Notes under the pieces: model-generated
The model's input: the letters and a program-made list of their open reading frames with translations, nothing else
Databases searched by the model: none
What the model was told of the DNA's origin: nothing
Part shown: piece after piece, positions 1,288 to 36,946 of the stretch
How positions within the stretch are numbered: the first letter of the stretch is position 1
Layout: every line of letters starts with the position of its first letter
Made by a program: the position numbers and the translations under genes
Origin: a candidate division TM6 bacterium GW2011_GWF2_28_16
Lineage (GTDB): Bacteria; Patescibacteriota; Microgenomatia; UBA1400; PJMF01
Direction of reading: 5' to 3'
Assembly (NCBI GenBank): GCA_001029715.1
Contig: CP011212.1
Location: 131,407-195,406 of the forward strand
Length of the DNA stretch: 64,000 nt

Positions 1288-4210
<2,923 letters not shown>

Positions 4211-4366
4211 ATTTATTAGTTTTCACAAAGGTCTTATTGAGTAGGTTAGTAGTGAAAGATTTATCTTTTACTACTAACCTTTATATTTCGATATAAAGCA
4301 GTTAGCTTCACTTATTAGCGAGCAAAATCGCTAATTAACATAAAATACGTGCATAAAAACGTTTTA

Positions 4367-4485
4367 TTCTGGTCTCTAGAGCGAGGTGGTACCAACTCTT
4401 CCCATCCCGAACAGAGTCTTGAAACGCTTCAGCGCTGACAATAGTTGGGGGTTCTCCCCCTGCAAAGATAGGTCGAGGCCAGAAT
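4367..4485 (+). rRNA. rrf: 5S ribosomal RNA
   Basis: ttctggtctctagagcgaggtggtaccaactcttcccatcccgaacagagt...ctgcaaagataggtcgaggccagaa. A terminal helix (ttctggtc/ggccagaa) and the conserved cccatcccgaac loop motif are present. It lies about 155 nt downstream of the 23S. Confidence 0.85.
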
Positions 4486-4500
4486 AAAGCGTTTTTTTTG
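4486..4500 (+). terminator. T-run after the 5S terminal helix, possible intrinsic terminator
   Basis: The 5S closing helix is followed by taaagcgttttttttg, a run of eight T. Confidence 0.4.
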
Positions 4501-4600
4501 TGCCCGAGCTTATGCGAGGGTACGTCTGAAGCACAAGCGGAAGACGAGCCAGTCCTTCTTTAAGAAGGTGTGTCCGAAGTGGAAGCGGAGGACGCGACTA
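4500..4600 (+). ncRNA. GC-rich structured element with two tandem hairpins. Function unknown; possibly an rRNA 3' processing structure or a small RNA.
   Basis: Hairpin 1 is cgtct-gaagcacaagcgga-agacg. Hairpin 2 is gtcc-gaagtggaagcgga-ggac. The loops share the consensus gaagNNNaagcgga, and the stems differ by a compensatory change (t:a to c:g). A palindrome, ccttctttaagaagg, lies between the two hairpins. Confidence 0.35.
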
Positions 4601-4626
4601 TTTCCCAATTTTACAGAAATTTTTCT

Positions 4627-4848
4627 TTACAAAAATAGTAAAAACCCAACAAAAACCGCTAGGGCTAGTAATAAATTTATTAGGCCAAGCAAGCTTACGC
4701 TTGAGGAAAAACCAGTAATAAGGGTTTTTTTCATGAGATTGATCTGACGAGAAACTATAAAGATATAGACTAGATTAAAAAAAGCGGCGACAACAAAAGC
4801 AATTTTGAGAGCACCATCTAATAGTTCTGCATTAAAAATATTATTCAT
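4627..4848 (-). CDS. Hypothetical small membrane protein (73 aa, 2 TM)
   Basis: The ORF has two strongly hydrophobic segments (IAFVVAAFFNLVYIFIV and LLGLINLLLALAVFVGFLLFL). It sits tightly upstream of the next minus-strand gene. Confidence 0.4.
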   Translation of the reverse strand: MNNIFNAELLDGALKIAFVVAAFFNLVYIFIVSRQINLMKKTLITGFSSSVSLLGLINLLLALAVFVGFLLFL

Positions 4849-4854
4849 TTTTCC

Positions 4855-5493
4855 TTAATTGACTCTGCCTTCTATTTTTTCTTTTTCTTCTTCTAAGAGA
4901 AGTTCACTTATTAACTTAGTAACTTTGGCTGGCTGGGGAACATTCCCGAACTCGAATTCAGTCTTTTCTCCAGCTGTTTGAATTAGAATGGTTCCATAAT
5001 TGAAAATTGCAGCTAAAGGTCCAGTGGTGCGAGCAGTAACGTCTTCAATATTTTCAATTTTAGCGTAAGAAATATTGTGATAGATCATCGAGGCGAAGTC
5101 GACATCGATAATTCTTTCATCAGTGATAATGTAAACATTAAAGAACCAAATTAAAAATGTTCTAGTGAAAAGACCAAAGGTTAAAACAATCCAAAAAATA
5201 TAAAAAGCGCCTATAAATTTATCTGGAAAAGTTTCTATAAATCCGGAAAAATTGAGCAAAATAGGAATAAGCAAAATAATCATACATAAGAAAAGAAATG
5301 ATTTTAACTGAGTAATTAAATGCTGTCTCAAAACCAAAATAATTTTTTCATCTTTGTTTTGAATATCAAGATGAATGTTTTTTGGTTTAGAAATAAAAGT
5401 ACGAAAGAAATTATTGGTAGATTTTTCGTTTTTCATTACTTCTGAATAATCTTCAACGTTTCTTCTCGCGTGGTGTTTATTTTGATCAGTCAT
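4855..5493 (-). CDS. Membrane protein with a bacterial PH domain (bPH_2 / YdbT-YdbS-like)
   Basis: 212 aa. Two TM helices (FLFLCMIILLIPILL, FYIFWIVLTFGLF) are followed by YIITDERIIDV...GTILIQTAG...FEFGNVPQP, which fits the bPH_2 pattern. Confidence 0.6.
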   Translation of the reverse strand: MTDQNKHHARRNVEDYSEVMKNEKSTNNFFRTFISKPKNIHLDIQNKDEKIILVLRQHLITQLKSFLFLCMIILLIPILLNFSGFIETFPDKFIGAFYIFWIVLTFGLFTRTFLIWFFNVYIITDERIIDVDFASMIYHNISYAKIENIEDVTARTTGPLAAIFNYGTILIQTAGEKTEFEFGNVPQPAKVTKLISELLLEEEKEKIEGRVN

Positions 5494-5618
5494 ATTTCTT
5501 TCTAATTATACCATTATATACGCCTTATGATTCCTACTTTGATTTTTCTCTAAAGTTTGCTATCTTATGACACAGATAAGTTTAGTATATTTGTTAGCAA
5601 AAATTATAAAAAGGAAAC

Positions 5619-6359
5619 ATGCCAGTTAAAAAAACCAGTAAAAAAGCAGTCGCAAAAAAAGTGATAAGTAAGCCAGCTGTAAAAACTGTTAAAAAAACAG
5701 TAGTTGCACCTAAGGTTATGCCTAAGATGGTCATGCCAAAAGTTCAGACAATGCCTATAAAAAAGCTTGACTCCAAAAAACTAATTAAGCCTTTAATTTT
5801 TCTACTTATTCTAGCTACTGTTTATTTACTCAAAGATGAGGTGATCGTCGCTAGCGTTAATGGTAAACCAGTGACACGCTGGGCTTTAACACGTAATCTA
5901 GAGAAACAAAGTGCTTCAACTGTTTTAGAAAATATGACCTTACAAATGTTAGTTGAACAAGAACTCAAAAAGGCTGGCATAGAGGTTACTGATGAAGAGA
6001 TGGATGCAGAAATCAGCAAGATTGAGGAGCAATTAGCTGCTCAGGGTCAAAACTTAGATGATTTATTAGCTGCTCAGAATTTAACCAGAACAACTGTTAG
6101 AGAGCAACTGGCCCTCAGTAAAGGCATGGAAAAACTTTTAGCTGGCAATATCATTGTTACCGATGAAGAAATCACTGCCTATTTCGAGCAAAACAAAGAA
6201 ATGATGGGCGCAGACGTTGCTTTGGAAGATATTAAAGCTGACATTGAAGCTCAATTGAAACAAGAAAAGTTAGCTACAGAGCAACAAAAATGGTTTGCAG
6301 AAATTAAGAAAAATGCAAAGATCAATTACTTTAAATTTGCTCCAAGCGTTAATCTTTAA
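5619..6359 (+). CDS. SurA N-terminal domain-like periplasmic chaperone. A Lys-rich N-terminus and one TM are present, and there is no PPIase domain.
   Basis: It has a K-rich tail, a TM segment (LIKPLIFLLILATVYLL), and then VNGKPVTRWALTRNLEKQ...LENMTLQMLVEQELKKAGIEVTDEEMDAEI, which resembles SurA_N. Confidence 0.55.
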   Translation: MPVKKTSKKAVAKKVISKPAVKTVKKTVVAPKVMPKMVMPKVQTMPIKKLDSKKLIKPLIFLLILATVYLLKDEVIVASVNGKPVTRWALTRNLEKQSASTVLENMTLQMLVEQELKKAGIEVTDEEMDAEISKIEEQLAAQGQNLDDLLAAQNLTRTTVREQLALSKGMEKLLAGNIIVTDEEITAYFEQNKEMMGADVALEDIKADIEAQLKQEKLATEQQKWFAEIKKNAKINYFKFAPSVNL

Positions 6360-6415
6360 AAATTAAAATAATAAATATTGAATCCCTCAAGCTTTTAGTT
6401 TGGGGGATTTTTTTA

Positions 6416-8236
6416 TTAAGTTTCAAGAACTGCCAAAAAAGCATCTTGATTAAGTTGTACTTGACCAATTTGTTTCATTCTTTTTTTGCCTTTGGCTTGT
6501 TTATCCAAGAGTTTCATTCTTCTAGTGCGATCGCCGCCGTAAAGTTTAGCAGTCACATCTTTACGCCAAGCTTTGATGGTTTCTCTAGCGATAACTTTTG
6601 CCCCAATGCTGGCCTGAATTGGAATCTCGAATAATTGACGAGGAATAACTTCTTTTAATTTTTTAACAATTGCTCGAGCTTTTGCTTCAACGTTATCTGC
6701 CACAGTAATAAAACTGAGAGCTTCTATCGATTCTTTGTTGACTAAAATTTCTACTTTAACAGCATCCACTTCTCTAAAATCTTGGAGGACATATTCCATA
6801 GAAGCAAAGCCCGAGGTAACAGACTTAAGCTTGTCGTGGAAGTCAGTAATGAGTTCAGCTAAGGGAATTAGATATTCCAAACGATTGCGGTTGCCAGTGC
6901 CAATACTGTTTTCCAAAGTGGCTCTTTTTTCATGACAAAGCTTCATGACTGCAGAAACATAATCTTCTGGACAGAAAACACTCAATTTAGCAATCGGTTC
7001 AAGTATTTTTCTCACTCTACTTAAATCTGGCATTTCTGCTGGAGAGTGAATTTCAATTATTTTGTCATTAGTGGTTAAAATTTGGTAGGTTACAGATGGA
7101 GCAGTGGCGATGAGGTCCAAATCAAATTCTCTCATTAATCTCTCGCGAACTATCTCAGCATGAAAAATACCTAGGAAGCCAACACGCAAGCCATTTCCCA
7201 AGGCAATGGAGTGGGTAGACTGATATTGCAGCGCACTATCATGCATGGTCAATTTTGCCATGGCGTCCTTTAGATTGGAAAAATCTTTGCTATCCACTGG
7301 ATAGATTTCCATAAAAACCATGGGAGTTGGTTCTTTGTAACCAGGTAAAACCTCAATCATTTCTCTGTCTTCAAAGCTAGTAATTGTGTCACCTACTTTA
7401 AGTAGAGAGATGTCCTTCAGTCCTGTAGCGATGTAACCAACTTCACCCTCTTTAAGAACAGCTCTTTTTTCTTTTTCTGGAGCAAAAATGCCAATTTCTA
7501 CTGGCAAGAATTTAGTTTTACTAAAACTTAAGTACATATCCTTTTTGCTCATTTCACCATTAACCACTCTCATATAAGCAATGGCGCCCTGATGGTTGTC
7601 AAATTTAGAAGTAATGATCAAAGCTCTTAGTTTATCGCTTTCTTGAACATGATCCTCTTGGATAAGTTTTTTTCCTGGCGCAGGTACTTCTTCGATAATT
7701 CTTTGTAAAACCTTTTCCACGCCTTGCCCAGTTTTGGCTGAGACCATTAGAACTTCTTCTTCATTTAGTTCAAAAAACTCCATGATTTCAAGAATGCTTT
7801 GCTCAACATTGGCTGATGGCAAATCAATTTTGTTAATGACAGGAATGATTTTAAGTTTCAAATTTTTAGCTTTTTGATAATTAGCCAATGTTTGAGCTTG
7901 TACTCCTTGAGTAGCATCGATGAGCAAAAGAGCTCCTTCACAAGCAGCGAGTGAGCGATCTACTTCATAACCAAAATCAACATGTCCTGGAGTATCAATT
8001 AAATTGAGGATATATTTTTTGCCTAAATGTTCATAGTTCATGCGAACAGGGGCTAATTTGATAGTTACACCCTTTTCTTGTTCAATTGGATTTGAGTCCA
8101 TCATGCGAGCATGAAAATTGAGGTCAGAAACGGCACCAGTGAGACGCAGAAAAGCATCGGTCAAAGTAGTTTTGCCGTGATCTATGTGAGCGATGATAGA
8201 AAAATTTCTAATCAAAGAAAGATCACTGTTTGTCAT
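6416..8236 (-). CDS. lepA: Elongation factor 4 (LepA)
   Basis: The N-terminus reads IRNFSIIAHIDHGKTTLTDAFL (LepA GTPase G1). It also has NLIDTPGHVDF, the domain order of the translational GTPase family, and a LepA-specific C-terminal domain. It is 606 aa. Confidence 0.95.
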   Translation of the reverse strand: MTNSDLSLIRNFSIIAHIDHGKTTLTDAFLRLTGAVSDLNFHARMMDSNPIEQEKGVTIKLAPVRMNYEHLGKKYILNLIDTPGHVDFGYEVDRSLAACEGALLLIDATQGVQAQTLANYQKAKNLKLKIIPVINKIDLPSANVEQSILEIMEFFELNEEEVLMVSAKTGQGVEKVLQRIIEEVPAPGKKLIQEDHVQESDKLRALIITSKFDNHQGAIAYMRVVNGEMSKKDMYLSFSKTKFLPVEIGIFAPEKEKRAVLKEGEVGYIATGLKDISLLKVGDTITSFEDREMIEVLPGYKEPTPMVFMEIYPVDSKDFSNLKDAMAKLTMHDSALQYQSTHSIALGNGLRVGFLGIFHAEIVRERLMREFDLDLIATAPSVTYQILTTNDKIIEIHSPAEMPDLSRVRKILEPIAKLSVFCPEDYVSAVMKLCHEKRATLENSIGTGNRNRLEYLIPLAELITDFHDKLKSVTSGFASMEYVLQDFREVDAVKVEILVNKESIEALSFITVADNVEAKARAIVKKLKEVIPRQLFEIPIQASIGAKVIARETIKAWRKDVTAKLYGGDRTRRMKLLDKQAKGKKRMKQIGQVQLNQDAFLAVLET

Positions 8237-11458: not shown

Positions 11459-11943
11459 TGAAAAAAACAGATAATAACAGTATTAGCAAACAATTAAATA
11501 AATTGCGCCGCGATAAGAGATTTTTATGGCTTGGAATTTTATTTTTTGTTTTAGTAACTTTTTGGATCTTACTTAGTCTTTTTGCTACTACTAAGACGAG
11601 CTCAATTTCTCCAGAATTACAGATCTTAGCTAAGCCTTTTGTGCCGAGACTAGAGTCTAAAGTTTTTGATGAGATTTTGCTAAAGAGATTTTTTTCTAAA
11701 GAAGAGCTTTCTCGTTTTTCTATTTATATTTTAGATAAAAATAATACGGGAGAAGAATCCCAACTAATTGATATTACTACTGAGAGTGATGGATTACTAA
11801 AAGAGCAATCTATGGCAGAAGAATCAACTACATCGCCAACACCAACACCAGCATCATCGCCAACACAAGCAGCAGATCCTGGGAGTTCAAATATAGACAA
11901 TATTTTAGAGGCAATTGAGGGTGATAATAAACCTCAAAACTAA
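11458..11943 (+). CDS. Hypothetical membrane-anchored protein with a Ser/Thr/Pro-rich C-terminus, in the pilus-like operon
   Basis: 161 aa. It has a TM (FLWLGILFFVLVTFWILLSLF) and ends with TTSPTPTPASSPTQAADPGSS. Its start overlaps the stop of the preceding gene (ATGA). Confidence 0.45.
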   Translation: MKKTDNNSISKQLNKLRRDKRFLWLGILFFVLVTFWILLSLFATTKTSSISPELQILAKPFVPRLESKVFDEILLKRFFSKEELSRFSIYILDKNNTGEESQLIDITTESDGLLKEQSMAEESTTSPTPTPASSPTQAADPGSSNIDNILEAIEGDNKPQN

Positions 11944-20407: not shown

Positions 20408-22588
20408 ATGAAAGTAAAAAATACTCTCCCCAAAATAAAAATGAAATTCATTGACAGAAAACTGTCTAAGGGCTTGGGGGAGGCAGTAGCCAAGCGTACA
20501 ATTTTGCGTACTAAGGCTGATGGCGAATTAGAAACTTGGGCTGATGTGGCTCATCGTGTGGCTCTTGGTAATTCCTCTTTATTGCCTAAGAAATTTGAAA
20601 AAGATCGTCAAAGTGAATATGAAATTTTGCGCAAACATATTTCTAATGCTTCATTGTTAATGAGTGGTCGCCATCTACAGCATGGTGACGAAACTCAACC
20701 GGGTCGCAACATGGAAGTTTTCACCAACTGCAGCACTGCTTCATCTTCTTTTCTTCTGTTTTATTTACTGCTAAATGGTTCCGGTGTTGGTCGTGCTTAT
20801 GACGATGCTTTAATGGTGGTGGACTGGGACTACATGCCAATTATTCGTTGCGTACTAAGTGAAGATCACGGAGATTTTGTTTGGGGTGATGATGAGAGTG
20901 TCCGTGAAGCTCGTCATAAGTATGAGAATGCTCATTGGTTTGAAATTCCAGATACTAGAGAAGGTTGGGCTCAGGCAGTCGAAAAGATTGAAGAAATGGC
21001 TCATGAGCGCAAATTCAAGAATGATACTTTGATTTTGGATTTTACTAAAGTTCGGCCAAAAGGCTCACCAATTGGTGGTATGCAGGGACGTCCTGCTTCT
21101 GGTCCTCGTCCTTTAATTAAAGCTATTCAGAAACTAGCGACCATCAAAGGTTCAGGCATGAAACCTTGGAAACAAGCTCTTTATGCCGATCACTATTTAT
21201 CTGAATGTGTTCTAGTAGGTGGCGCGCGCCGTGCTGCTCGTATTGCAGTTAAAACTTGGACCGATCCGGATATTTTTGAGTTTATTAGTATCAAAAAAGG
21301 TGGCTTTTTATGGTCAGCTAATAACAGCGTAGCCGTTGATGAGAAATTTTGGAAACAGCGTAGTTTACACTCCATGAAGGTTTTGGATGCTGTAATGCGT
21401 GCTTCTTATTTTGATAAAACTGGCGAGCCAGGTTTTGTGAATCAACATAAATTAGTCCAAAACGATGACGGTTTTGATGGTTATCTTGATGGCAAATATG
21501 CTCAAAGCAAAAAATTTATGCCAATGAAAAAAACAATCAAGATGTTGGCTGAAGTGGCAAAGCATGCTGGAGCAAAATATTACACTCAAATTCCAAATCC
21601 CTGTGGTGAGATTACTTTAAATATGCTGGGTGGTTACTGTGTAATTGCTGATGTGGTACCTTATCATGCTCCTGATGTTGACAGCGCAGAAGAGGCTTTC
21701 CGTGCAGCTACTCGTGCTTTGATGAGAGTTAATACTTACATGGATAGTTTGTATTCTCGCGAGGTTAAAAGAACTAATCGTATTGGTGTTGGCATGACTG
21801 GTATTCATGAATATGCTTGGAATGCTTTTGGTTTAGCTTTCCGCGATCTGATTGATGAAGAAAAGGCCAAAGATTTTTGGATGACCATTGCTCGTTTTAA
21901 ACGCGCCGTCGAAGAAGAATCAGTTAGCTATGCCAAGAAAATTGGTGCGACCGTGCCTCATACTAATACGACTATCAAACCAGCTGGCACAACCTCTAAG
22001 CTTTTTAGTCTTTCTGAGGGTGCTCATTTGCCAGCCATGCGCGAATATATCCGCTGGGTACAATTTCGCGAAGATGATCCTTTGGTTAATAAATATAAAA
22101 AAATGGGTTATCCAATCAAAGAACTCAAGAGTTATCAAGGCACTACCGCAATTGGTTTCCCAACTCAGCCAGAAATTTGTCGTTTGGGCATGAATAATAA
22201 ACTAGTGACTGCTAGCGAAGCAACTCCTGAAGAGCAATACAAATGGTTAATGTTGATAGAAAAATATTGGATTGTGGGTGTTGATGAGAATGGTAAGTCT
22301 TTAGCAGAAGATAAGGGTAACCAGGTTTCTTACACTCTTAAATATGATCCAGAGCAAGTTTCTTATCGTAAATTTTCAAGTATGATTCGCAAATATCAGC
22401 CAATGATTAAAACTTGTAGTGTTATGCCTAAGATTGATGTGACTGCTTATGAATATCAACCCGAAGAAGCAGTGACCATTGGTCAGTTTATGCAGGTGAT
22501 CAATGAAATTAGTGATGATGAGGCTGGCGTGACCGAGGATATTAGTATGGAGCATCTAAAGTGTGACAGCGGTGCTTGTCCTATTTAA
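20408..22588 (+). CDS. nrdJ: Ribonucleoside-triphosphate reductase, class II (adenosylcobalamin-dependent, monomeric NrdJ-like)
   Basis: 726 aa. It carries the RNR active-site motif QIPNPCGEITL (NxCxE with the thiyl-radical Cys). The C-terminal Cys pair HLKCDSGACPI matches the class II reductant-accepting tail. The size matches monomeric class II RTPR. It follows nrdR 4 nt later. Confidence 0.8.
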   Translation: MKVKNTLPKIKMKFIDRKLSKGLGEAVAKRTILRTKADGELETWADVAHRVALGNSSLLPKKFEKDRQSEYEILRKHISNASLLMSGRHLQHGDETQPGRNMEVFTNCSTASSSFLLFYLLLNGSGVGRAYDDALMVVDWDYMPIIRCVLSEDHGDFVWGDDESVREARHKYENAHWFEIPDTREGWAQAVEKIEEMAHERKFKNDTLILDFTKVRPKGSPIGGMQGRPASGPRPLIKAIQKLATIKGSGMKPWKQALYADHYLSECVLVGGARRAARIAVKTWTDPDIFEFISIKKGGFLWSANNSVAVDEKFWKQRSLHSMKVLDAVMRASYFDKTGEPGFVNQHKLVQNDDGFDGYLDGKYAQSKKFMPMKKTIKMLAEVAKHAGAKYYTQIPNPCGEITLNMLGGYCVIADVVPYHAPDVDSAEEAFRAATRALMRVNTYMDSLYSREVKRTNRIGVGMTGIHEYAWNAFGLAFRDLIDEEKAKDFWMTIARFKRAVEEESVSYAKKIGATVPHTNTTIKPAGTTSKLFSLSEGAHLPAMREYIRWVQFREDDPLVNKYKKMGYPIKELKSYQGTTAIGFPTQPEICRLGMNNKLVTASEATPEEQYKWLMLIEKYWIVGVDENGKSLAEDKGNQVSYTLKYDPEQVSYRKFSSMIRKYQPMIKTCSVMPKIDVTAYEYQPEEAVTIGQFMQVINEISDDEAGVTEDISMEHLKCDSGACPI

Positions 22589-22679
22589 TTCGATCAATCT
22601 TTGCACGAGCTTTACTTTTAGTGGAACGTGATTAATTTAACACTTTATGTTTGTATTTCCATGCTAAAATAACGCCACT

Positions 22680-31319: not shown

Positions 31320-33355
<2,036 letters not shown>

Positions 33356-33364
33356 TTCAAAAGC

Positions 33365-33506
33365 AATTCTTGATTCAAGACACGTTTACTAAAAGTCTTG
33401 CTACATTGAAGTTACAATCTTTTTAAACTCAGAGAAGTCGCTGTATTTACTTTGTTCTTAGAACAAAAAACAATCAGCGACTTCTAATGGTCTTTCATCA
33501 AGAATT
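33365..33506. mobile_element. MITE-like IR-bounded element, copy A (142 bp), immediately 3' of groEL
   Basis: Terminal inverted repeats are aattcttgattcaagac (33365-33381) and gtctttcatcaagaatt (33490-33506), matching at 15 of 17. An internal 11-bp IR, agaagtcgctg/cagcgacttct, encloses the palindrome ttgttcttagaacaa. The core block acaatcttt...ctcagagaagtcgctgt is shared with copy B at 36703-36868. Confidence 0.5.
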
Positions 33507-33529
33507 ATCTTTTTCACTTGGAAAAAAAG

Positions 33530-33603
33530 TAGCGGGACTGAGATTCGGACTCAGGACCTTGGGTTTATGAATCCCACGCTCTAACCAGCTGAGCTATCCC
33601 GCC
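33530..33603 (-). tRNA. tRNA with anticodon CAU (elongator Met or lysidine-modified Ile2)
   Basis: The reverse complement reads GGCGGGA-TA-GCTC-AGCTGGTTA-GAGC-G-TGGGA-TTCATAA-ACCCA-AGGTC-CTGAG-TCCGAAT-CTCAG-TCCCGCT-A. This is a full cloverleaf with anticodon CAT. There is no C1:A72 mismatch, so it is not the initiator. Confidence 0.8.
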
Positions 33604-33640
33604 ATTTTATTTGAGACTGGTGTATTTTAGCGCAGCTTGC

Positions 33641-33669
33641 TTGATAATACCAGATTCTTTTGTTACAAT
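33641..33669 (+). promoter_or_regulatory. Putative sigma70-type promoter for the initiator tRNA
   Basis: A -35 TTGATA lies at 33641-33646. After a 17-bp spacer, an extended -10, TGtTACAAT, lies at 33661-33669. The tRNA 5' end is about 15 nt downstream. Confidence 0.45.
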
Positions 33670-33683
33670 AACTGCCTAACATA

Positions 33684-33752
33684 CGCGGGATAGTGTACGG
33701 TGCACGTGGGGCTCATAATCCCACAGGCTAGGTTCGACTCCTAGTTCCGCAA
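33684..33752 (+). tRNA. Initiator tRNA-fMet (anticodon CAU). It is compact, with a short D-arm and a 4-nt variable loop.
   Basis: The 5' end is CGCGGGA and the 3' end is TTCCGCA-A, giving the C1:A72 mismatch and A73 typical of bacterial initiator tRNA. The anticodon arm TGGGG-CTCATAA-TCCCA has a loop identical to E. coli tRNAfMet (CUCAUAA) and G:C pairs in the stem. The T-arm is ctagg-ttcgact-cctag. It is 69 nt because of the reduced D-loop. Confidence 0.7.
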
Positions 33753-33766
33753 ATTAAATAAAGAAA

Positions 33767-33789
33767 ACGACCTTGAGTCGTTTTTTTTA
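33767..33789 (+). terminator. Intrinsic terminator after tRNA-fMet
   Basis: The hairpin acgac-cttga-gtcgt is followed by a T run of eight. Confidence 0.5.
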
Positions 33790-33867
33790 TTTAATTTTGC
33801 ATCAACTATGAATTGTTGACTCTGACCGAGTTTATAACGAGGGAATGTCCGGAGTGGAGACGGAGGA

Positions 33868-33884
33868 CCTAGTTCCGCAAATTA
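33868..33884 (+). repeat. 17-bp direct repeat duplicating the 3' end of tRNA-fMet (att-like). The first copy is at 33740-33756, inside the tRNA.
   Basis: cctagttccgcaaatta occurs at 33740-33756 (T-stem 3' strand, acceptor 3' strand and discriminator, plus 4 nt) and again at 33868-33884, 128 bp downstream. This is the pattern left by tRNA-targeting integrases (attL/attR). Confidence 0.5.
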
Positions 33885-33894
33885 CAAAAATAAG

Positions 33895-33917
33895 TCTGGC
33901 ATTTGCCAGATTTTTTG
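33895..33917 (+). terminator. Hairpin plus T-run immediately after the second att-like repeat
   Basis: tctggca-tt-tgccaga is followed by tttttt. Confidence 0.45.
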
Positions 33918-33957
33918 TTTATGTTTACAATGATAACTAAATTAACAAAAAGGAAAA

Positions 33958-34164
33958 ATGAGTGAACAACCTAAATCAGCAGAACAAGAGAGTCAAGAAA
34001 AAAAAGATGAGGCTTTAAGTGATGTTCCCGATTACGTTCCTGCTGAGCGAGGGACACTTAGTTTAGGATCTTTTACTGAGTCTTTGAGAAAAGCATTAAT
34101 TAGTAGTGCGAGTTCAGAAAGTTCTGAATCTCCCTCAAAAACAGATTTGCCTGATTCCAAATAA
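33958..34164 (+). CDS. Hypothetical small acidic Ser/Glu-rich protein (68 aa). Doubtful.
   Basis: The ORF is MSEQPKSAEQESQEKKDE...SSASSESSESPSK. It is low complexity. A reasonable RBS (aaaaggaaaaATG) supports expression. Confidence 0.3.
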   Translation: MSEQPKSAEQESQEKKDEALSDVPDYVPAERGTLSLGSFTESLRKALISSASSESSESPSKTDLPDSK

Positions 34165-34182
34165 TGTTTATATAATGGACTA

Positions 34183-35364
34183 ATGGAAGATAATAAAGAC
34201 CAGGTTAAATACGCTAACTTCAAATACGAAGGTGACAAGCCAATTCTTCCCCTAGAGAATCATTCTCTAAAAAAAGAGCAACAATTAGGTTACGGAGCTG
34301 TTTCTTCTGTTTATGAATTAAATAATGATAAAGTTTTAAAATTAACTAGCAGCGTGGTCGACATATCTTCTGGAAAAGTAATAGCTTCAGGTATGACTCC
34401 GCCTTTAGTTGAAAATAATCTTCACGAAGACGCGAATACTTCTAGAGAAAAAGCAATTGCTAAATTGATGGATTATGCCAAAGAAAAAAAGCAAACTTAC
34501 GATTTATTAAAAAAATATTTAGGGGCTCATGTTACTAATGTTGATGTTTTCGCGATAGTTGATGCTCCACTTAGAGAAATATATAAATTACGCTACTCGT
34601 TTAAAAATGACATCGATGTATTGAACATTCCGGTTTCCGAATTATCAGTCATGGAAGTAGGAGATAAAATTGATAAACAAAACGAATTGTTTAATACGGA
34701 TTTTGATTTTCTAAAAGAGTTGTATAGCAATTCTTCTTTTCAAGAAAGAGCGACTGATTTTTCCAAAAAAGCCTTAGAACTTTTTCAAAAAGAACGAGTA
34801 ATGTTGGACATTTCTGGCCAGGATCGTATTTTTGTTGTTGATAAAAATAATTCAGGTAGATACGACTACGCTGCTAATGTAGATGAACTTTTATCATTAA
34901 TGAATAGTGATGATAAATTACCTCTTTTCAATAATTTAGCTTTTCACAATCAAGAATTACAAATTTTTGACTCTTTTCCTATATATGAAGTTCCCCTAGA
35001 AATTTCTGATGCAGATGTCGCTGAGGCTATAGAAGTTGTTGAGTCGAAAGATCCAGAAAAAATTAAAGAATTTTTTAATAAACCTCTAGAAAAATTTAAA
35101 ATGATTAGCGATGAATTTATTGACGATTTTATTAAAATGGTAAGGAGTAATGACAAAGCTGAGGCTTCTAAGCTATTTAAATATATTTATCCAGACAAAA
35201 ATGAATCAGAAATACAAATTTTGATAGAGTCTGGCATAGAAGAATGCGACCAAAATTATACAGATGATGAGATGAGATCTAATTTTGTTCAGATGAGGGC
35301 AGGTCAAAAATTTGAAGTATTGAAATACGCTTATCAGCTAAATTTTCTTTCAGAGAAACATTAA
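34183..35364 (+). CDS. Hypothetical protein with a protein-kinase-like N-terminal ATP-binding motif (possible atypical kinase or pseudokinase)
   Basis: 393 aa, with no signal peptide. LGYGAVSSVYELNNDKVLKL resembles the kinase Gly-rich loop (GxGxxSxV) followed by a VAIK-like Lys. A possible degenerate catalytic region is MLDISGQDRIFVVDKNNSG. The C-terminal half is acidic and helical. Confidence 0.4.
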   Translation: MEDNKDQVKYANFKYEGDKPILPLENHSLKKEQQLGYGAVSSVYELNNDKVLKLTSSVVDISSGKVIASGMTPPLVENNLHEDANTSREKAIAKLMDYAKEKKQTYDLLKKYLGAHVTNVDVFAIVDAPLREIYKLRYSFKNDIDVLNIPVSELSVMEVGDKIDKQNELFNTDFDFLKELYSNSSFQERATDFSKKALELFQKERVMLDISGQDRIFVVDKNNSGRYDYAANVDELLSLMNSDDKLPLFNNLAFHNQELQIFDSFPIYEVPLEISDADVAEAIEVVESKDPEKIKEFFNKPLEKFKMISDEFIDDFIKMVRSNDKAEASKLFKYIYPDKNESEIQILIESGIEECDQNYTDDEMRSNFVQMRAGQKFEVLKYAYQLNFLSEKH

Positions 35365-35727
35365 CTTTTTCCATTCTTCTAGAGGTCCATTTTTCTCAAG
35401 TGTCATCTCGTTATTAATTTCCTCATTAAGCTCTTCTTTTTCAGGAATCTGTAAAATAATTTCACCTTCTTTTTTTTGCAAAAGTTCATTGCGCATAATT
35501 TTTTCTGTAGCTAATTCGTCCTGACTATCAGCAAACTTTTTTTCTTCCTCTTTGAATTCGTTTTCCATTATTTCAATATTTTTTTCCAATTTTTGAATAC
35601 TTTCTTTGGAGACCAAGGCTTTGCGACTACTCTCGCGCAAAGAAAAGATGCCTAATAAGCAAAGACAGGTAAAAATGAAGATTAGCAGGGGGTGACCGAA
35701 GAGATTTTGGATTTTTTCTTTATTCAT
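35350..35727 (-). CDS. FtsB/DivIC-like septum formation protein (TM plus coiled coil)
   Basis: 125 aa. It has an N-terminal TM (LLIFIFTCLCLLGIFSL), a coiled coil, and a C-terminal ...EKIMRNELLQKKEGEIILQIP that resembles the FtsB end motif (AR.eLg..kpgE.v..i). Confidence 0.5.
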   Translation of the reverse strand: MNKEKIQNLFGHPLLIFIFTCLCLLGIFSLRESSRKALVSKESIQKLEKNIEIMENEFKEEEKKFADSQDELATEKIMRNELLQKKEGEIILQIPEKEELNEEINNEMTLEKNGPLEEWKKLMFL

Positions 35728-35839
35728 TTTGATGTCTTTATATGTTCTCAGGACTTGTTTATAAACCGAGTTTATGATATTATAAGACCCTATTATTCGA
35801 TAAATAAAAACTTATCTGTCCAAATAGGTTTAAATAATT

Positions 35840-36706
35840 ATGCACACAAACTTACTTGACGCGCAAGCAAAGTTTACAGAGAGCTTAAAAGCCGCAGGCA
35901 AAGCTCATGCTACTGTAATTGCTTACAGCAAGGACATCGAACAACTAGCTGATTTTCTTAGTAAGAGATCTAAAAATCTCCTTGCTGAGGTAGTGGCAGA
36001 AGACCTAGAGTCTTTCAAAGAGTTGCTTAGAAAACAACGTTACACCAGTAAATCTATCTCCAGAAAAATTAATTCTATTAAATCTTTCTTTCGTTTTTGC
36101 GTGAGTGAAGGTTTACTAGAGGGCAATCCAACTGAAGACATTACTCAGCCAAAATTTGATCAAACTCCTCCACGTATTCTATCCCGTTTAGAGTATCGCG
36201 CTTTGCGTGATTCTTGTCGCGCTGACATCAGAATGCACGCTATTGTCGAAATTTTACTTCAAACTGGTATGAGAATTAGTGAGCTAGCTGCTTTGCAACA
36301 AAGCGATATTGATCTTGAGAGAGAATTGATTTATATTCAAGCTCAAAATTCTCGTGAAGCTCGCCGTATTCCTTTGAATGCTGCCGCTAAAAAAGCAGTT
36401 TTGGATTATTTCAAAATGCGTCCTCGTGCCAAAGAAAAGACTTTGTTTTTGACTAAAACCTGTCGTCCTTTTTTGGTCAGAAATATTCGCACTGCTATTG
36501 ATCGTTATTTCCGTTTAGCTGGTATTAAAGATGCCAAAGTTAATGATCTTCGTCATACCTTTGTAGTTGAACAGCTTAAGGCTGGCACTCCTTTGGTTTA
36601 TGTTTCTCAATTGGTTGGTCACAAACGCATTACCACCACTGAAAAATATTTACATTTAATTGAAGCTCCAGAAATGCAGCCAAATATTAAAATCGAAGAA
36701 TTGTAA
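35840..36706 (+). CDS. Tyrosine site-specific recombinase, XerC/XerD-like (phage-integrase family)
   Basis: 288 aa. The N-terminal core-binding domain reads AYSKDIEQLADFL...SISRKINSIKSFFRF. The catalytic motifs are MRISELAAL (R), DLRHTFVVEQL (HxxR) and LVGHKRITTTEKYLHL (H...Y). Confidence 0.85.
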   Translation: MHTNLLDAQAKFTESLKAAGKAHATVIAYSKDIEQLADFLSKRSKNLLAEVVAEDLESFKELLRKQRYTSKSISRKINSIKSFFRFCVSEGLLEGNPTEDITQPKFDQTPPRILSRLEYRALRDSCRADIRMHAIVEILLQTGMRISELAALQQSDIDLERELIYIQAQNSREARRIPLNAAAKKAVLDYFKMRPRAKEKTLFLTKTCRPFLVRNIRTAIDRYFRLAGIKDAKVNDLRHTFVVEQLKAGTPLVYVSQLVGHKRITTTEKYLHLIEAPEMQPNIKIEEL

Positions 36707-36868
36707 TTCTAGATTATCTTATTTAGCCAAGCTCCACTAAAATTGTTTATTTTTTAATATAGACAATCTTTGTTTCGCTCAGAGAAGTCGCTGTTTATTA
36801 GCAGTTAGCTAATTTGTGCATGTTGATCAGCTCCTTCTATGGGCTAAAGTAAGATAATCTAGAATTAC
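36703..36868. mobile_element. MITE-like IR-bounded element, copy B (166 bp), overlapping the xer stop codon. It is homologous to copy A.
   Basis: The terminal IRs are gtaattctagattatcttat (36703-36722) and ataagataatctagaattac (36849-36868), matching at 19 of 20. The first 11 nt, aattctagatt, match copy A's aattcttgatt. The internal block acaatcttt...ctcagagaagtcgctgt at 36764-36794 matches copy A. A degenerate partner, cagctccttct, lies at 36829-36839. Confidence 0.5.
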
Positions 36869-36946
36869 TTTTTAAAGAATGGTTTTTCATTTCTTCTTGA
36901 GCCATTCTCGTGCTAAGATATTTTCTATAAGAAGTAGAGGAAATAT

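Follow-up and report, generated by a model that had tools for sequence, protein, structure and literature searches.

A family of structured repeats placed after stop codons in Candidatus Pacebacteria, with a probable role at mRNA 3' ends

The stretch of DNA considered here, referred to as the window, comprises 64,000 nucleotides (nt) of contig CP011212.1 (positions 131,407 to 195,406; assembly GCA_001029715.1) and carries, behind the genes groEL and xer, two elements designated copies A and B (Table 1). They are homologous members of one repeat family, and this family of structured repeats in Candidatus Pacebacteria has no earlier description. The reading preferred here, to which we assign a probability of roughly 0.55, is that A and B are old, diverged members of a dispersed family of elements of about 140–165 nt which probably act in transcription termination or at the mRNA 3' end, and that they are not parts of a mobile unit. 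The original prediction had taken them for copies of a miniature inverted-repeat transposable element (MITE) bracketing a composite mobilisable island of 3.2 kb, and had offered as an alternative that the elements are linked to terminator-like sites.

Both copies lie at the predicted coordinates and contain the shared blocks described for them, the distance from the groEL stop codon (33353–33355) to copy A being 9 nt; copy B does overlap the end of xer, whose stop codon TAA (36704–36706) sits within the first arm of the closing stem. The blocks common to both are ACTAAAA, ACAATCTTT and ATCAGC..CTTCTA(A)TGG; in addition, the ends read AATTCT.GATT and ...AGAATT, and an exact 17-mer, CTCAGAGAAGTCGCTGT, is present at 33428 in A and at 36778 in B. 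With up to three mismatches permitted, this 17-mer is found in the 64 kb only in A and B (shuffled sequence: mean 0.13, with two of 100 shuffles reaching two occurrences), while the gapped motif ACAATCTTT-N(2-12)-CAGAGAAG occurs twice in the window and in none of 100 shuffles; a profile of the core scores the two copies at E = 1e-14 to 1e-18. The cores of A and B are 73% identical, the closing stems are unrelated in sequence. Compared with shuffled sequence, both fold into markedly stable structures (z values in Table 1), in which a long closing stem, P1, surrounds a three-way junction with two hairpins, P2 and P3.

Table 1. Members of the repeat family and features of the segment between copies A and B; window positions are counted from its first letter
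Feature	Position or locus	Strand	Sequence	Remarks
Copy A	33365–33506	+	window	142 nt; inverted repeats I2 and I21; fold z = -6.7; covariance model 102.7 bits
Copy A, P1 arms	33365–33381 and 33490–33506	+	window	
Copy A, P2 hairpin	33384–33428	+	window	
Copy A, closing pair and P3 arms	33433–43 and 33475–85	+	window	AGAAGTCGCTG and CAGCGACTTCT
Copy A, junction AATG	33486–89	+	window	
A-run TTCAAAAGC	33356–33364		window	5' of copy A
T-run ATCTTTTTC	33507–33515	+	window	immediately 3' of P1 of copy A
Copy B	36703–36868	+	window	166 nt; inverted repeat I3 (22 nt, 95% complementary); fold z = -9.4; covariance model 106.4 bits
Copy B, P1 arms	36703–36728 and 36842–36868	+	window	
Copy B, P2	about 36729–36779	+	window	
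Copy B, P3 arms	36783–93 and 36828–38	+	window	TC/TC internal loop
T-run TTTTT and short linker	36869–36884	+	window	3' of copy B, 5' of TTTTTCATTTCTTCTTGAGCC; from alignment of filled and empty sites
Copy A''	after groEL		sister strain, L053, L050	each followed by right half of an A-type copy
Copy B'	after xer		L053	
Decayed copy	after xer		L050	
12-nt relic AAGTCGCTGTTT	after xer		L049	
Copy C	after ribonucleotide reductase gene (nrd)		sister strain	
Decayed reversed copy	nrd–PBP spacer		L052	
Possible decayed reversed remnant (TCACGTTCCACTAAAAGT...)	22583–22631	-	window	nrd–PBP spacer; sister strain has full copy C there
Copy D	after ftsH		L050	
L020 copy	spacer between divergent genes		L020	3' arm of P3 missing
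tRNA-Met (CAU)	33529–33603	-	window	convergent with groEL; context only
tRNA-Met (CAU)	33684–33752	+	window	3' end is attachment site of integrative element
Integrative-element scar	33757–33884	+	window	128 nt; flanked by 17-nt direct repeat CCTAGTTCCGCAAATTA (33740–56, 33868–84)
Open reading frame, 393 codons	34183–35364	+	window	393 aa; only strain-specific gene of the segment; not in sister strain
DivIC/FtsL-like gene	35350–35727	-	window	125 aa; Pfam DivIC E = 4e-4; NCBIfam ftsL_broad E = 7e-4
Xer-family tyrosine recombinase gene	35840–36706	+	window	288 aa; Pfam Phage_integrase 4.6e-28

GroEL of the window is identical in sequence to that of Candidatus Pacebacteria bacterium GW2011_GWF2_38_9, and exact protein matches led to several assemblies of this strain and to a sister strain. 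The window was compared with this sister strain (GCA_018817305.1, a 751-kb contig; 91–97% DNA identity) and with other genomes of Candidatus Pacebacteria, the fetched sequences being labeled with L-numbers (L020, L034, L047–L053 etc.). Seven of the further relatives were picked by GroEL homologs with 87–96% identity, 21 kb being taken from each; altogether, about 260 kb of related sequence were covered for copies and gene tables. L020 (CAZIBP010000010.1), about 75% identical to the window and syntenic with its positions 4078–6870, is titled "uncultured Pseudomonadales" in its record, yet has 36% GC and Pacebacteria synteny (rRNA end, SurA-like, LepA), and the label looks wrong. Copies were sought with the core profile first and then with a covariance model, and are named by locus: A and A'' at groEL, B and B' at xer, C at nrd, D at ftsH. 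Eight full copies (142–166 nt, 96–128 bits with the covariance model), which occupy these four loci, and three partial or decayed ones (27–43 bits, or matched by nhmmer alone) were recognized. The search has returned nine copies or remnants beyond A and B, and both the homology of the elements and their variable presence in close relatives are borne out.

P1 is an AT-rich stem of 17–26 bp; its pairing is perfect or nearly so in every full copy, and its sequence is different in each copy and unrelated between paralogues. Within it, the conserved core opens with ACG, followed by hairpin P2 (ACTAAAA or GACGGAAA on one side, CAATCTT opposite), by CTC and a closing pair, by hairpin P3, and by A(A)YGG before the stem closes. 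In the model alignment of the eight copies, 82.6% of the cells are paired as against 73.5% in shuffles, a percentage which understates the pairing, since four copies have the 3' arm of P3 shifted by one column; 14 of 31 pairs are changed on both sides as against 8.0 in shuffles, a count that comes from eight sequences, three of them orthologous, in an alignment fitted to the model. None of 500 shuffles reaches the observed values, and pairing falls to 35–54% when the partners are slid along the alignment. Within the orthologous A'', P3 reads TGAGACCGTTG/CAACGGTCTCA in the sister strain and TGAGGCCGCTG/CAGCGGCCTCA in L050, which amounts to two double changes, and P2 shows the compensatory exchange of GTTTGA/TCAAAC versus GCTTGA/TCAAGC. 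P3 is TGAAGGCG/CGCCTTCA in D and CGAAG..GTTG/CAAC..TTTCG in B', and its closing pair alternates between CA..TG and CG..CG. By this pattern of substitutions the base pairing is shown to be under selection; that the folded form is RNA is what we infer.

All eight full copies are co-oriented with the upstream gene and start 0–9 nt past its stop codon, leaving a spacer of 20–80 nt on their 3' side. A T-run stands no more than 3 nt from the end of P1 in six of nine copies: ATCTTTTTC in A, TTTTT in B, CTTTTTC in C, TTTCTTTT in two of the A'' copies, and ATTTTT in the A'' of L050. In four relatives (L048, L049, L051, L052), a classic terminator consisting of a GC stem and a T-run follows groEL in place of the element; that of L049 is AAAAGGGAGTC-TTTTTA-GACTCCCTTTTTT, and at the position of copy A, L049 and L051 have terminators of the form AAAA-stem-TTTTTT. 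Together with the A-run before it and the T-run behind it, copy A would have the layout of a two-way terminator between groEL and the convergent tRNA-Met gene. Because of the co-oriented position after the stop codon, the T-runs, and the terminators which relatives have at the same place, a terminator or 3'-end role would be the simplest reading, and among the options raised originally it is the link to terminator-like sites that fits the data best. The element would be transcribed as the tail of the upstream mRNA, P1 and the U-run would end transcription and/or protect the mRNA 3' end, and the element would in this way take over from the plain terminator found in relatives.

Several observations weigh against this reading, among them the narrow basis of the covariation count given above. 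Three of the nine copies (B', D, and that of L020) have no good T-run; the long P1 is rich in AT, whereas the plain terminators nearby have GC-rich stems, and a simple consensus terminator scanner does not call the elements (AT-rich stem, interior of 110 nt). The L020 copy lies between divergent genes, and both relics in the nrd–PBP spacer are reversed. Sense and antisense strands fold about equally well, G-U counts of 28 versus 22 pick no strand, and a hairpin at the DNA level may still be the form that matters. The window holds two copies only, and another 80 kb, taken from the window strain and its sister, yield none with the model. Finally, a terminator needs no conserved three-way junction; the conserved core is left unexplained by such a role and points to specific recognition.

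The distribution of the copies changes between close relatives. In the sister strain, groEL is followed by A'' where the window has A; copy C stands where the window has a spacer of 92 nt; and copy B is missing, only 63 nt lying between xer and ddl, although the Xer protein is identical. In the nrd–PBP spacer of the window, the segment 22583–22631 gives a weak nhmmer match (E = 0.6–2.8), with 16 of 18 bases matching the start of the core of copy C, and may tentatively be regarded as a relic of the element. The counterpart of the L020 site in the window (5494–5618) is empty. Right-half remnants of an A-type copy, consisting of the P3 loop, the 3' arm of P3 and the 3' arm of P1, are found at L038 3105–3173, L053 ~11796–11860 and L050 ~11792–11860; in these three genomes a complete A'', the newer copy, stands 5' of the remnant, next to the stop codon. 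The 20–24 nt between the xer stop codon and a conserved GATCTCGTGCTAAGATAT box differ in every relative (window 36869–36905; L002 10868–10887; L049 15857–15880), and 12 nt of the element core are included in the counterpart in L049, which hints at a spot where elements have been gained and have decayed more than once. A simple insertion does not account for all differences between filled and empty xer sites, which include three synonymous changes in the last two xer codons; the stretch directly 3' of the xer stop codon of the sister strain is TTTTTCATTTCTTCTTGAGCC. For L047, L048, L049, and L051, the model finds no copy in the 21 kb of each.

As the paralogues occupy non-homologous sites, this comparison shows the family to have been copied to several loci at some time. 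Identity between paralogous cores is only 55–79%, A and B being 73% identical and B and the L020 copy 88%, and the copies are therefore old. The comparison likewise shows copies to have been lost, replaced or swapped between lineages, including strains with 91–97% DNA identity; because the flanks of filled and empty sites differ beyond simple insertion, these strain differences may have arisen without new insertions, through the loss or exchange of whole intergenic alleles. Large sequence collections added one member: among 185,579 species genomes, a gapped core pattern picked out a single true copy, that of L020. Nine matches each, all by chance, came from a search of viral contigs with the 17-mer and from a slightly looser core pattern in JGI metagenomes; of 20 matches to a degenerate core pattern in viral contigs the model confirmed none, and BLAST of copy B against phage and plasmid collections gave no match. 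Exact patterns are too strict, A'' and C differing in the 17-mer, and these scans set no bound on copy number.

Proteobacteria and firmicutes are well-known hosts of small structured repeats, and the sub-megabase genomes of the candidate phyla radiation (CPR) are regarded as very poor in repeated or mobile DNA; full-text literature searches returned no report of such structured repeats in Patescibacteria or the CPR. Intrinsic terminators share place and orientation with the element, as well as the order of stem and T-run, but the Pacebacteria stem is two to three times longer and AT-rich, its "loop" is a conserved stretch of 110 nt with two hairpins, and it belongs to a repeat family rather than being a locus-specific hairpin. 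The closest described analogue would seem to be the SPRITE repeat of pneumococci, an AT-rich element with an 18-bp duplex and a U-rich tract, located near gene 3' ends in a few tens of copies, for which no target duplication is established, no insertion sequence with matching ends is found, and co-option as a terminator has been proposed (PMC3049150). Both are small, AT-rich, interspersed repeats near gene 3' ends with a long duplex followed by a U-rich tract; however, SPRITE is essentially a stem and T-tract with AAAA/TTTT ends, whereas the Pacebacteria element encloses a conserved three-way junction of ~110 nt (P2, P3) and has a stem that varies in sequence from copy to copy. The two are not similar in sequence and belong to different phyla.

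For ERIC elements, compensatory changes which preserve the RNA fold have been reported. The ERIC/IRU elements of enterobacteria are imperfect palindromes of ~127 nt in transcribed intergenic regions, patchy in strains and species, and alter mRNA fate when placed at gene 3' ends in Yersinia (Hulton 1991; Wilson & Sharp 2006; reviewed in PMC10969869). Palindromic structure, intergenic location and patchy occurrence between strains are thus common to both families, but ERIC elements stand in either orientation and keep their consensus from end to end, while in Pacebacteria conservation is confined to the inner core and full copies lie in sense orientation after stop codons. Correia elements have conserved terminal repeats of 26 bp, a TA duplication, promoters, and an IHF site, none of which is seen in the Pacebacteria element. 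In Neisseria, these hairpin repeats of 100–200 nt are co-transcribed with genes, their duplex is cleaved by RNase III, and they can invert (PMC10969869). A repeat family that replaces terminators behind groEL, xer, nrd, and ftsH would offer a handle on how transcription ends in uncultured organisms; and as the elements break assemblies and vary between strains, they are of relevance to binning and strain typing.

That the elements are classical MITEs is not likely, although this is the best placed of the rival explanations. A non-autonomous transposon with TTAATTC...GAATTAA ends would have been moved into TA or TTAA by a DDE transposase encoded elsewhere, and the position after stop codons would mark tolerated insertion sites. 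AATTC...GAATT, often with flanking TA or TTAA, is indeed the outer motif in five of nine copies (A, B, B', D, L020), but it lies at variable depth in P1, has 14 extra paired bp outside it in D and is missing in A'' and C; moreover, flanking TA or TTAA is not separable from an extension of the stem, because both are self-complementary. The nearly constant length (142–166 nt) of small, dispersed copies without coding capacity suits a MITE; however, the inner 8+8 nt of P1 are only 25–69% identical between paralogues, versus 55–79% for the core. Paralogues at non-homologous loci and presence that differs between strains (B not in the sister strain, C not in the window) would be expected as well, and Correia, ERIC, and QMITE2 elements behave alike (PMC10969869), but at the level of core identity given above nothing points to recent transposition.

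The empty xer site of the sister strain does have TTAA at the stop codon, but, as described, the sites differ beyond simple insertion. Local alignment of the flanks finds no direct repeat for six of eight copies; the imperfect repeats at the other two are 19 nt at L020 and ~30 nt at B' (p = 0.047 and 0.017, uncorrected for eight tests). The gene tables of the ~260 kb contain no transposase gene, and the compensatory changes in orthologues show selection on pairing, for which a dead MITE would have no need. The label "MITE-like" is apt insofar as the elements are dispersed, shorter than 300 bp, non-coding, and strain-variable; the copies show no long conserved terminal repeat and no clear target duplication, and the ~260 kb show no transposase. 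Two other routes of origin were considered and abandoned. One arm of P1 might be a copy of the native flank, but the resemblances in B, C, and L020 are weak in AT-rich sequence and statistically marginal. The core might have been inserted into the loop of an existing terminator, but no such hairpin exists at the sister strain's empty xer site, and P1 is unlike the GC-rich terminators of relatives; the 14 extra paired bp outside AATTC in D keep this idea partly alive.

It is conceivable, if doubtful, that a terminator module which spreads by itself carries, in the conserved three-way junction, a functional RNA domain of a new type, to which a dedicated protein or nuclease might bind, for instance. 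In that case new copies would land at stop codons and displace older ones, as the A'' 5' of a half-deleted A might illustrate, and tiny CPR genomes would renew and exchange their terminators via a mobile structured RNA or DNA element, along a copying route without classical transposon signatures.

A functional non-coding RNA family, made up of trans-acting small RNAs or of protein-binding RNAs processed from mRNA 3' ends, appears improbable. According to this explanation the three-way junction would be the active part and the terminator position merely the mode of expression. The conservation of core sequence (ACG, CAATCTT, CTC, GCTGT, AYGG) and the covariation of three helices would agree with it, but the conserved stretches lie mostly within helices and not in loops able to pair with targets, and A and B have no Rfam match at gathering thresholds; at E up to 10, chance-level matches touch B and none touches A. 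The core of B has stayed 88% identical to that of the L020 copy in spite of ~75% identity in coding DNA, and every full copy follows an expressed housekeeping gene in the sense direction; on the other hand, copies are freely lost in close relatives (those four with none in 21 kb), the strand comparison shows no asymmetry, and the L020 copy does without half of P3.

Still less is to be said for sites that act as DNA, that is, single-stranded or cruciform hairpins recognized by a recombinase or a nucleoid protein in the manner of attC, REP/BIME or Xer sites; this is very improbable. REP elements are palindromes of 20–40 nt that bear a GTAG or CGTC tag and are accompanied by a RAYT gene. The attC sites consist of R''/L''-L'/R' boxes with GTTRRRY and go with an IntI gene with an extra domain (see also PMC3733652). 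Equal folding of both strands would suit DNA sites, and so would arms perfectly paired despite unrelated sequences, a state that template-switch repair of palindromic DNA can also yield; at one locus a pair of remnants lies inverted, an outcome to be expected if inverted arms recombine. Yet attC R/L boxes, GTAG or CGTC tags and a dif-like core of 28–31 bp are all missing from the copies. Of recombinases, the neighbourhood offers only the core Xer (69 bits with the integron-integrase model, whose cut-off is 265) and, in some relatives, a serine recombinase of phage type that has an attachment site of its own in the tRNA; the sense bias after stop codons and the T-runs fit a role as RNA better. 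A resemblance of AATTTTCTTGA in A'' to the arm of the XerS site difSL was judged a low-complexity coincidence.

As originally described, the segment between A and B contains two CAU tRNA genes, a duplicated tRNA 3' end and a Xer-like recombinase; the duplicated piece measures 17 nt (starting at 33740 and 33868), and the Xer-family recombinase 288 aa. The duplication marks an attachment site (window 33740–33884, L034 3973, L038 2889, L002 9220). In the sister strain the same repeats enclose a 10.7-kb block with a serine recombinase of 574 aa and Bro-N, HTH, and Macro genes, and the 45 nt before its right repeat are homologous to the scar in the window; L052 has a similar block (~10 kb, large serine recombinase) at the tRNA-Met site and L049 a similar scar. 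The scar is absent from L034, a population variant, and assemblies break or have N-gaps there. From these arrangements, the variable DNA between tRNA-Met and the divIC-like gene is evidently a matter of site-specific integration at the tRNA-Met 3' end. An 11-mer, ACCGAGTTTAT, common to the scar and the region upstream of xer is within chance for 64 kb and was disregarded.

Three poorly conserved open reading frames had been proposed for the segment; frames of 68, 393, and 125 aa exist, but the last is the conserved DivIC/FtsL-like gene, whose DivIC match recurs in L051 and L052, and the supposed "kinase-like" gene, the frame of 393 aa, has no match in Pfam, NCBIfam, PHROG, or PDB sequences, and none of the tests speaks for that label. 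The best models for Xer are XerA, XerD, and XerC (160–168 bits, under their cut-offs); eight relatives encode it at the same position with 288 aa, whereas the L051 protein has 296 aa. Gene order in the relatives is groEL, a variable stretch with two tRNA-Met genes, the divIC-like gene, xer, a second variable stretch, ddl, a gene for a tRNA-binding protein, and ftsH. The divIC-like gene and xer are adjacent in nine of nine relatives, with elements on both sides, on one or on neither; because they are syntenic in all relatives, these two are, by this comparison, core chromosomal genes and no island cargo. The composite island, of which A and B would be the ends and which its Xer recombinase would perhaps move, can be dismissed with near certainty on this synteny from groEL to ddl: tRNAs, a partly duplicated one among them, and a tyrosine recombinase do lie between homologous elements of the same orientation, but xer and the divIC-like gene are in place regardless of the elements, the sister strain has the identical Xer without B and is homologous to the window only from 35356 on, a point within the segment, the tRNA duplication is part of the serine-recombinase element, and members of the family stand singly at unrelated loci, A and B themselves having unrelated stems and cores only 73% identical. 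The apparent island in the window is an ordinary variable spot beside a tRNA integration site.

Two further observations were made in passing. Where the SurA-like and LepA genes converge (window ~6360–6415, L078 4903–4958), the terminator hairpin has an extra hairpin of 40 nt in the sister strain (L079 4842–4958), and terminator hairpins of these genomes seem prone to nested insertions. GroES, encoded at 31320–31691 of the window, has a cysteine-rich insert, and close relatives have GroES proteins of between 105 and 189 aa; this loop is thus highly variable and may bind metal.

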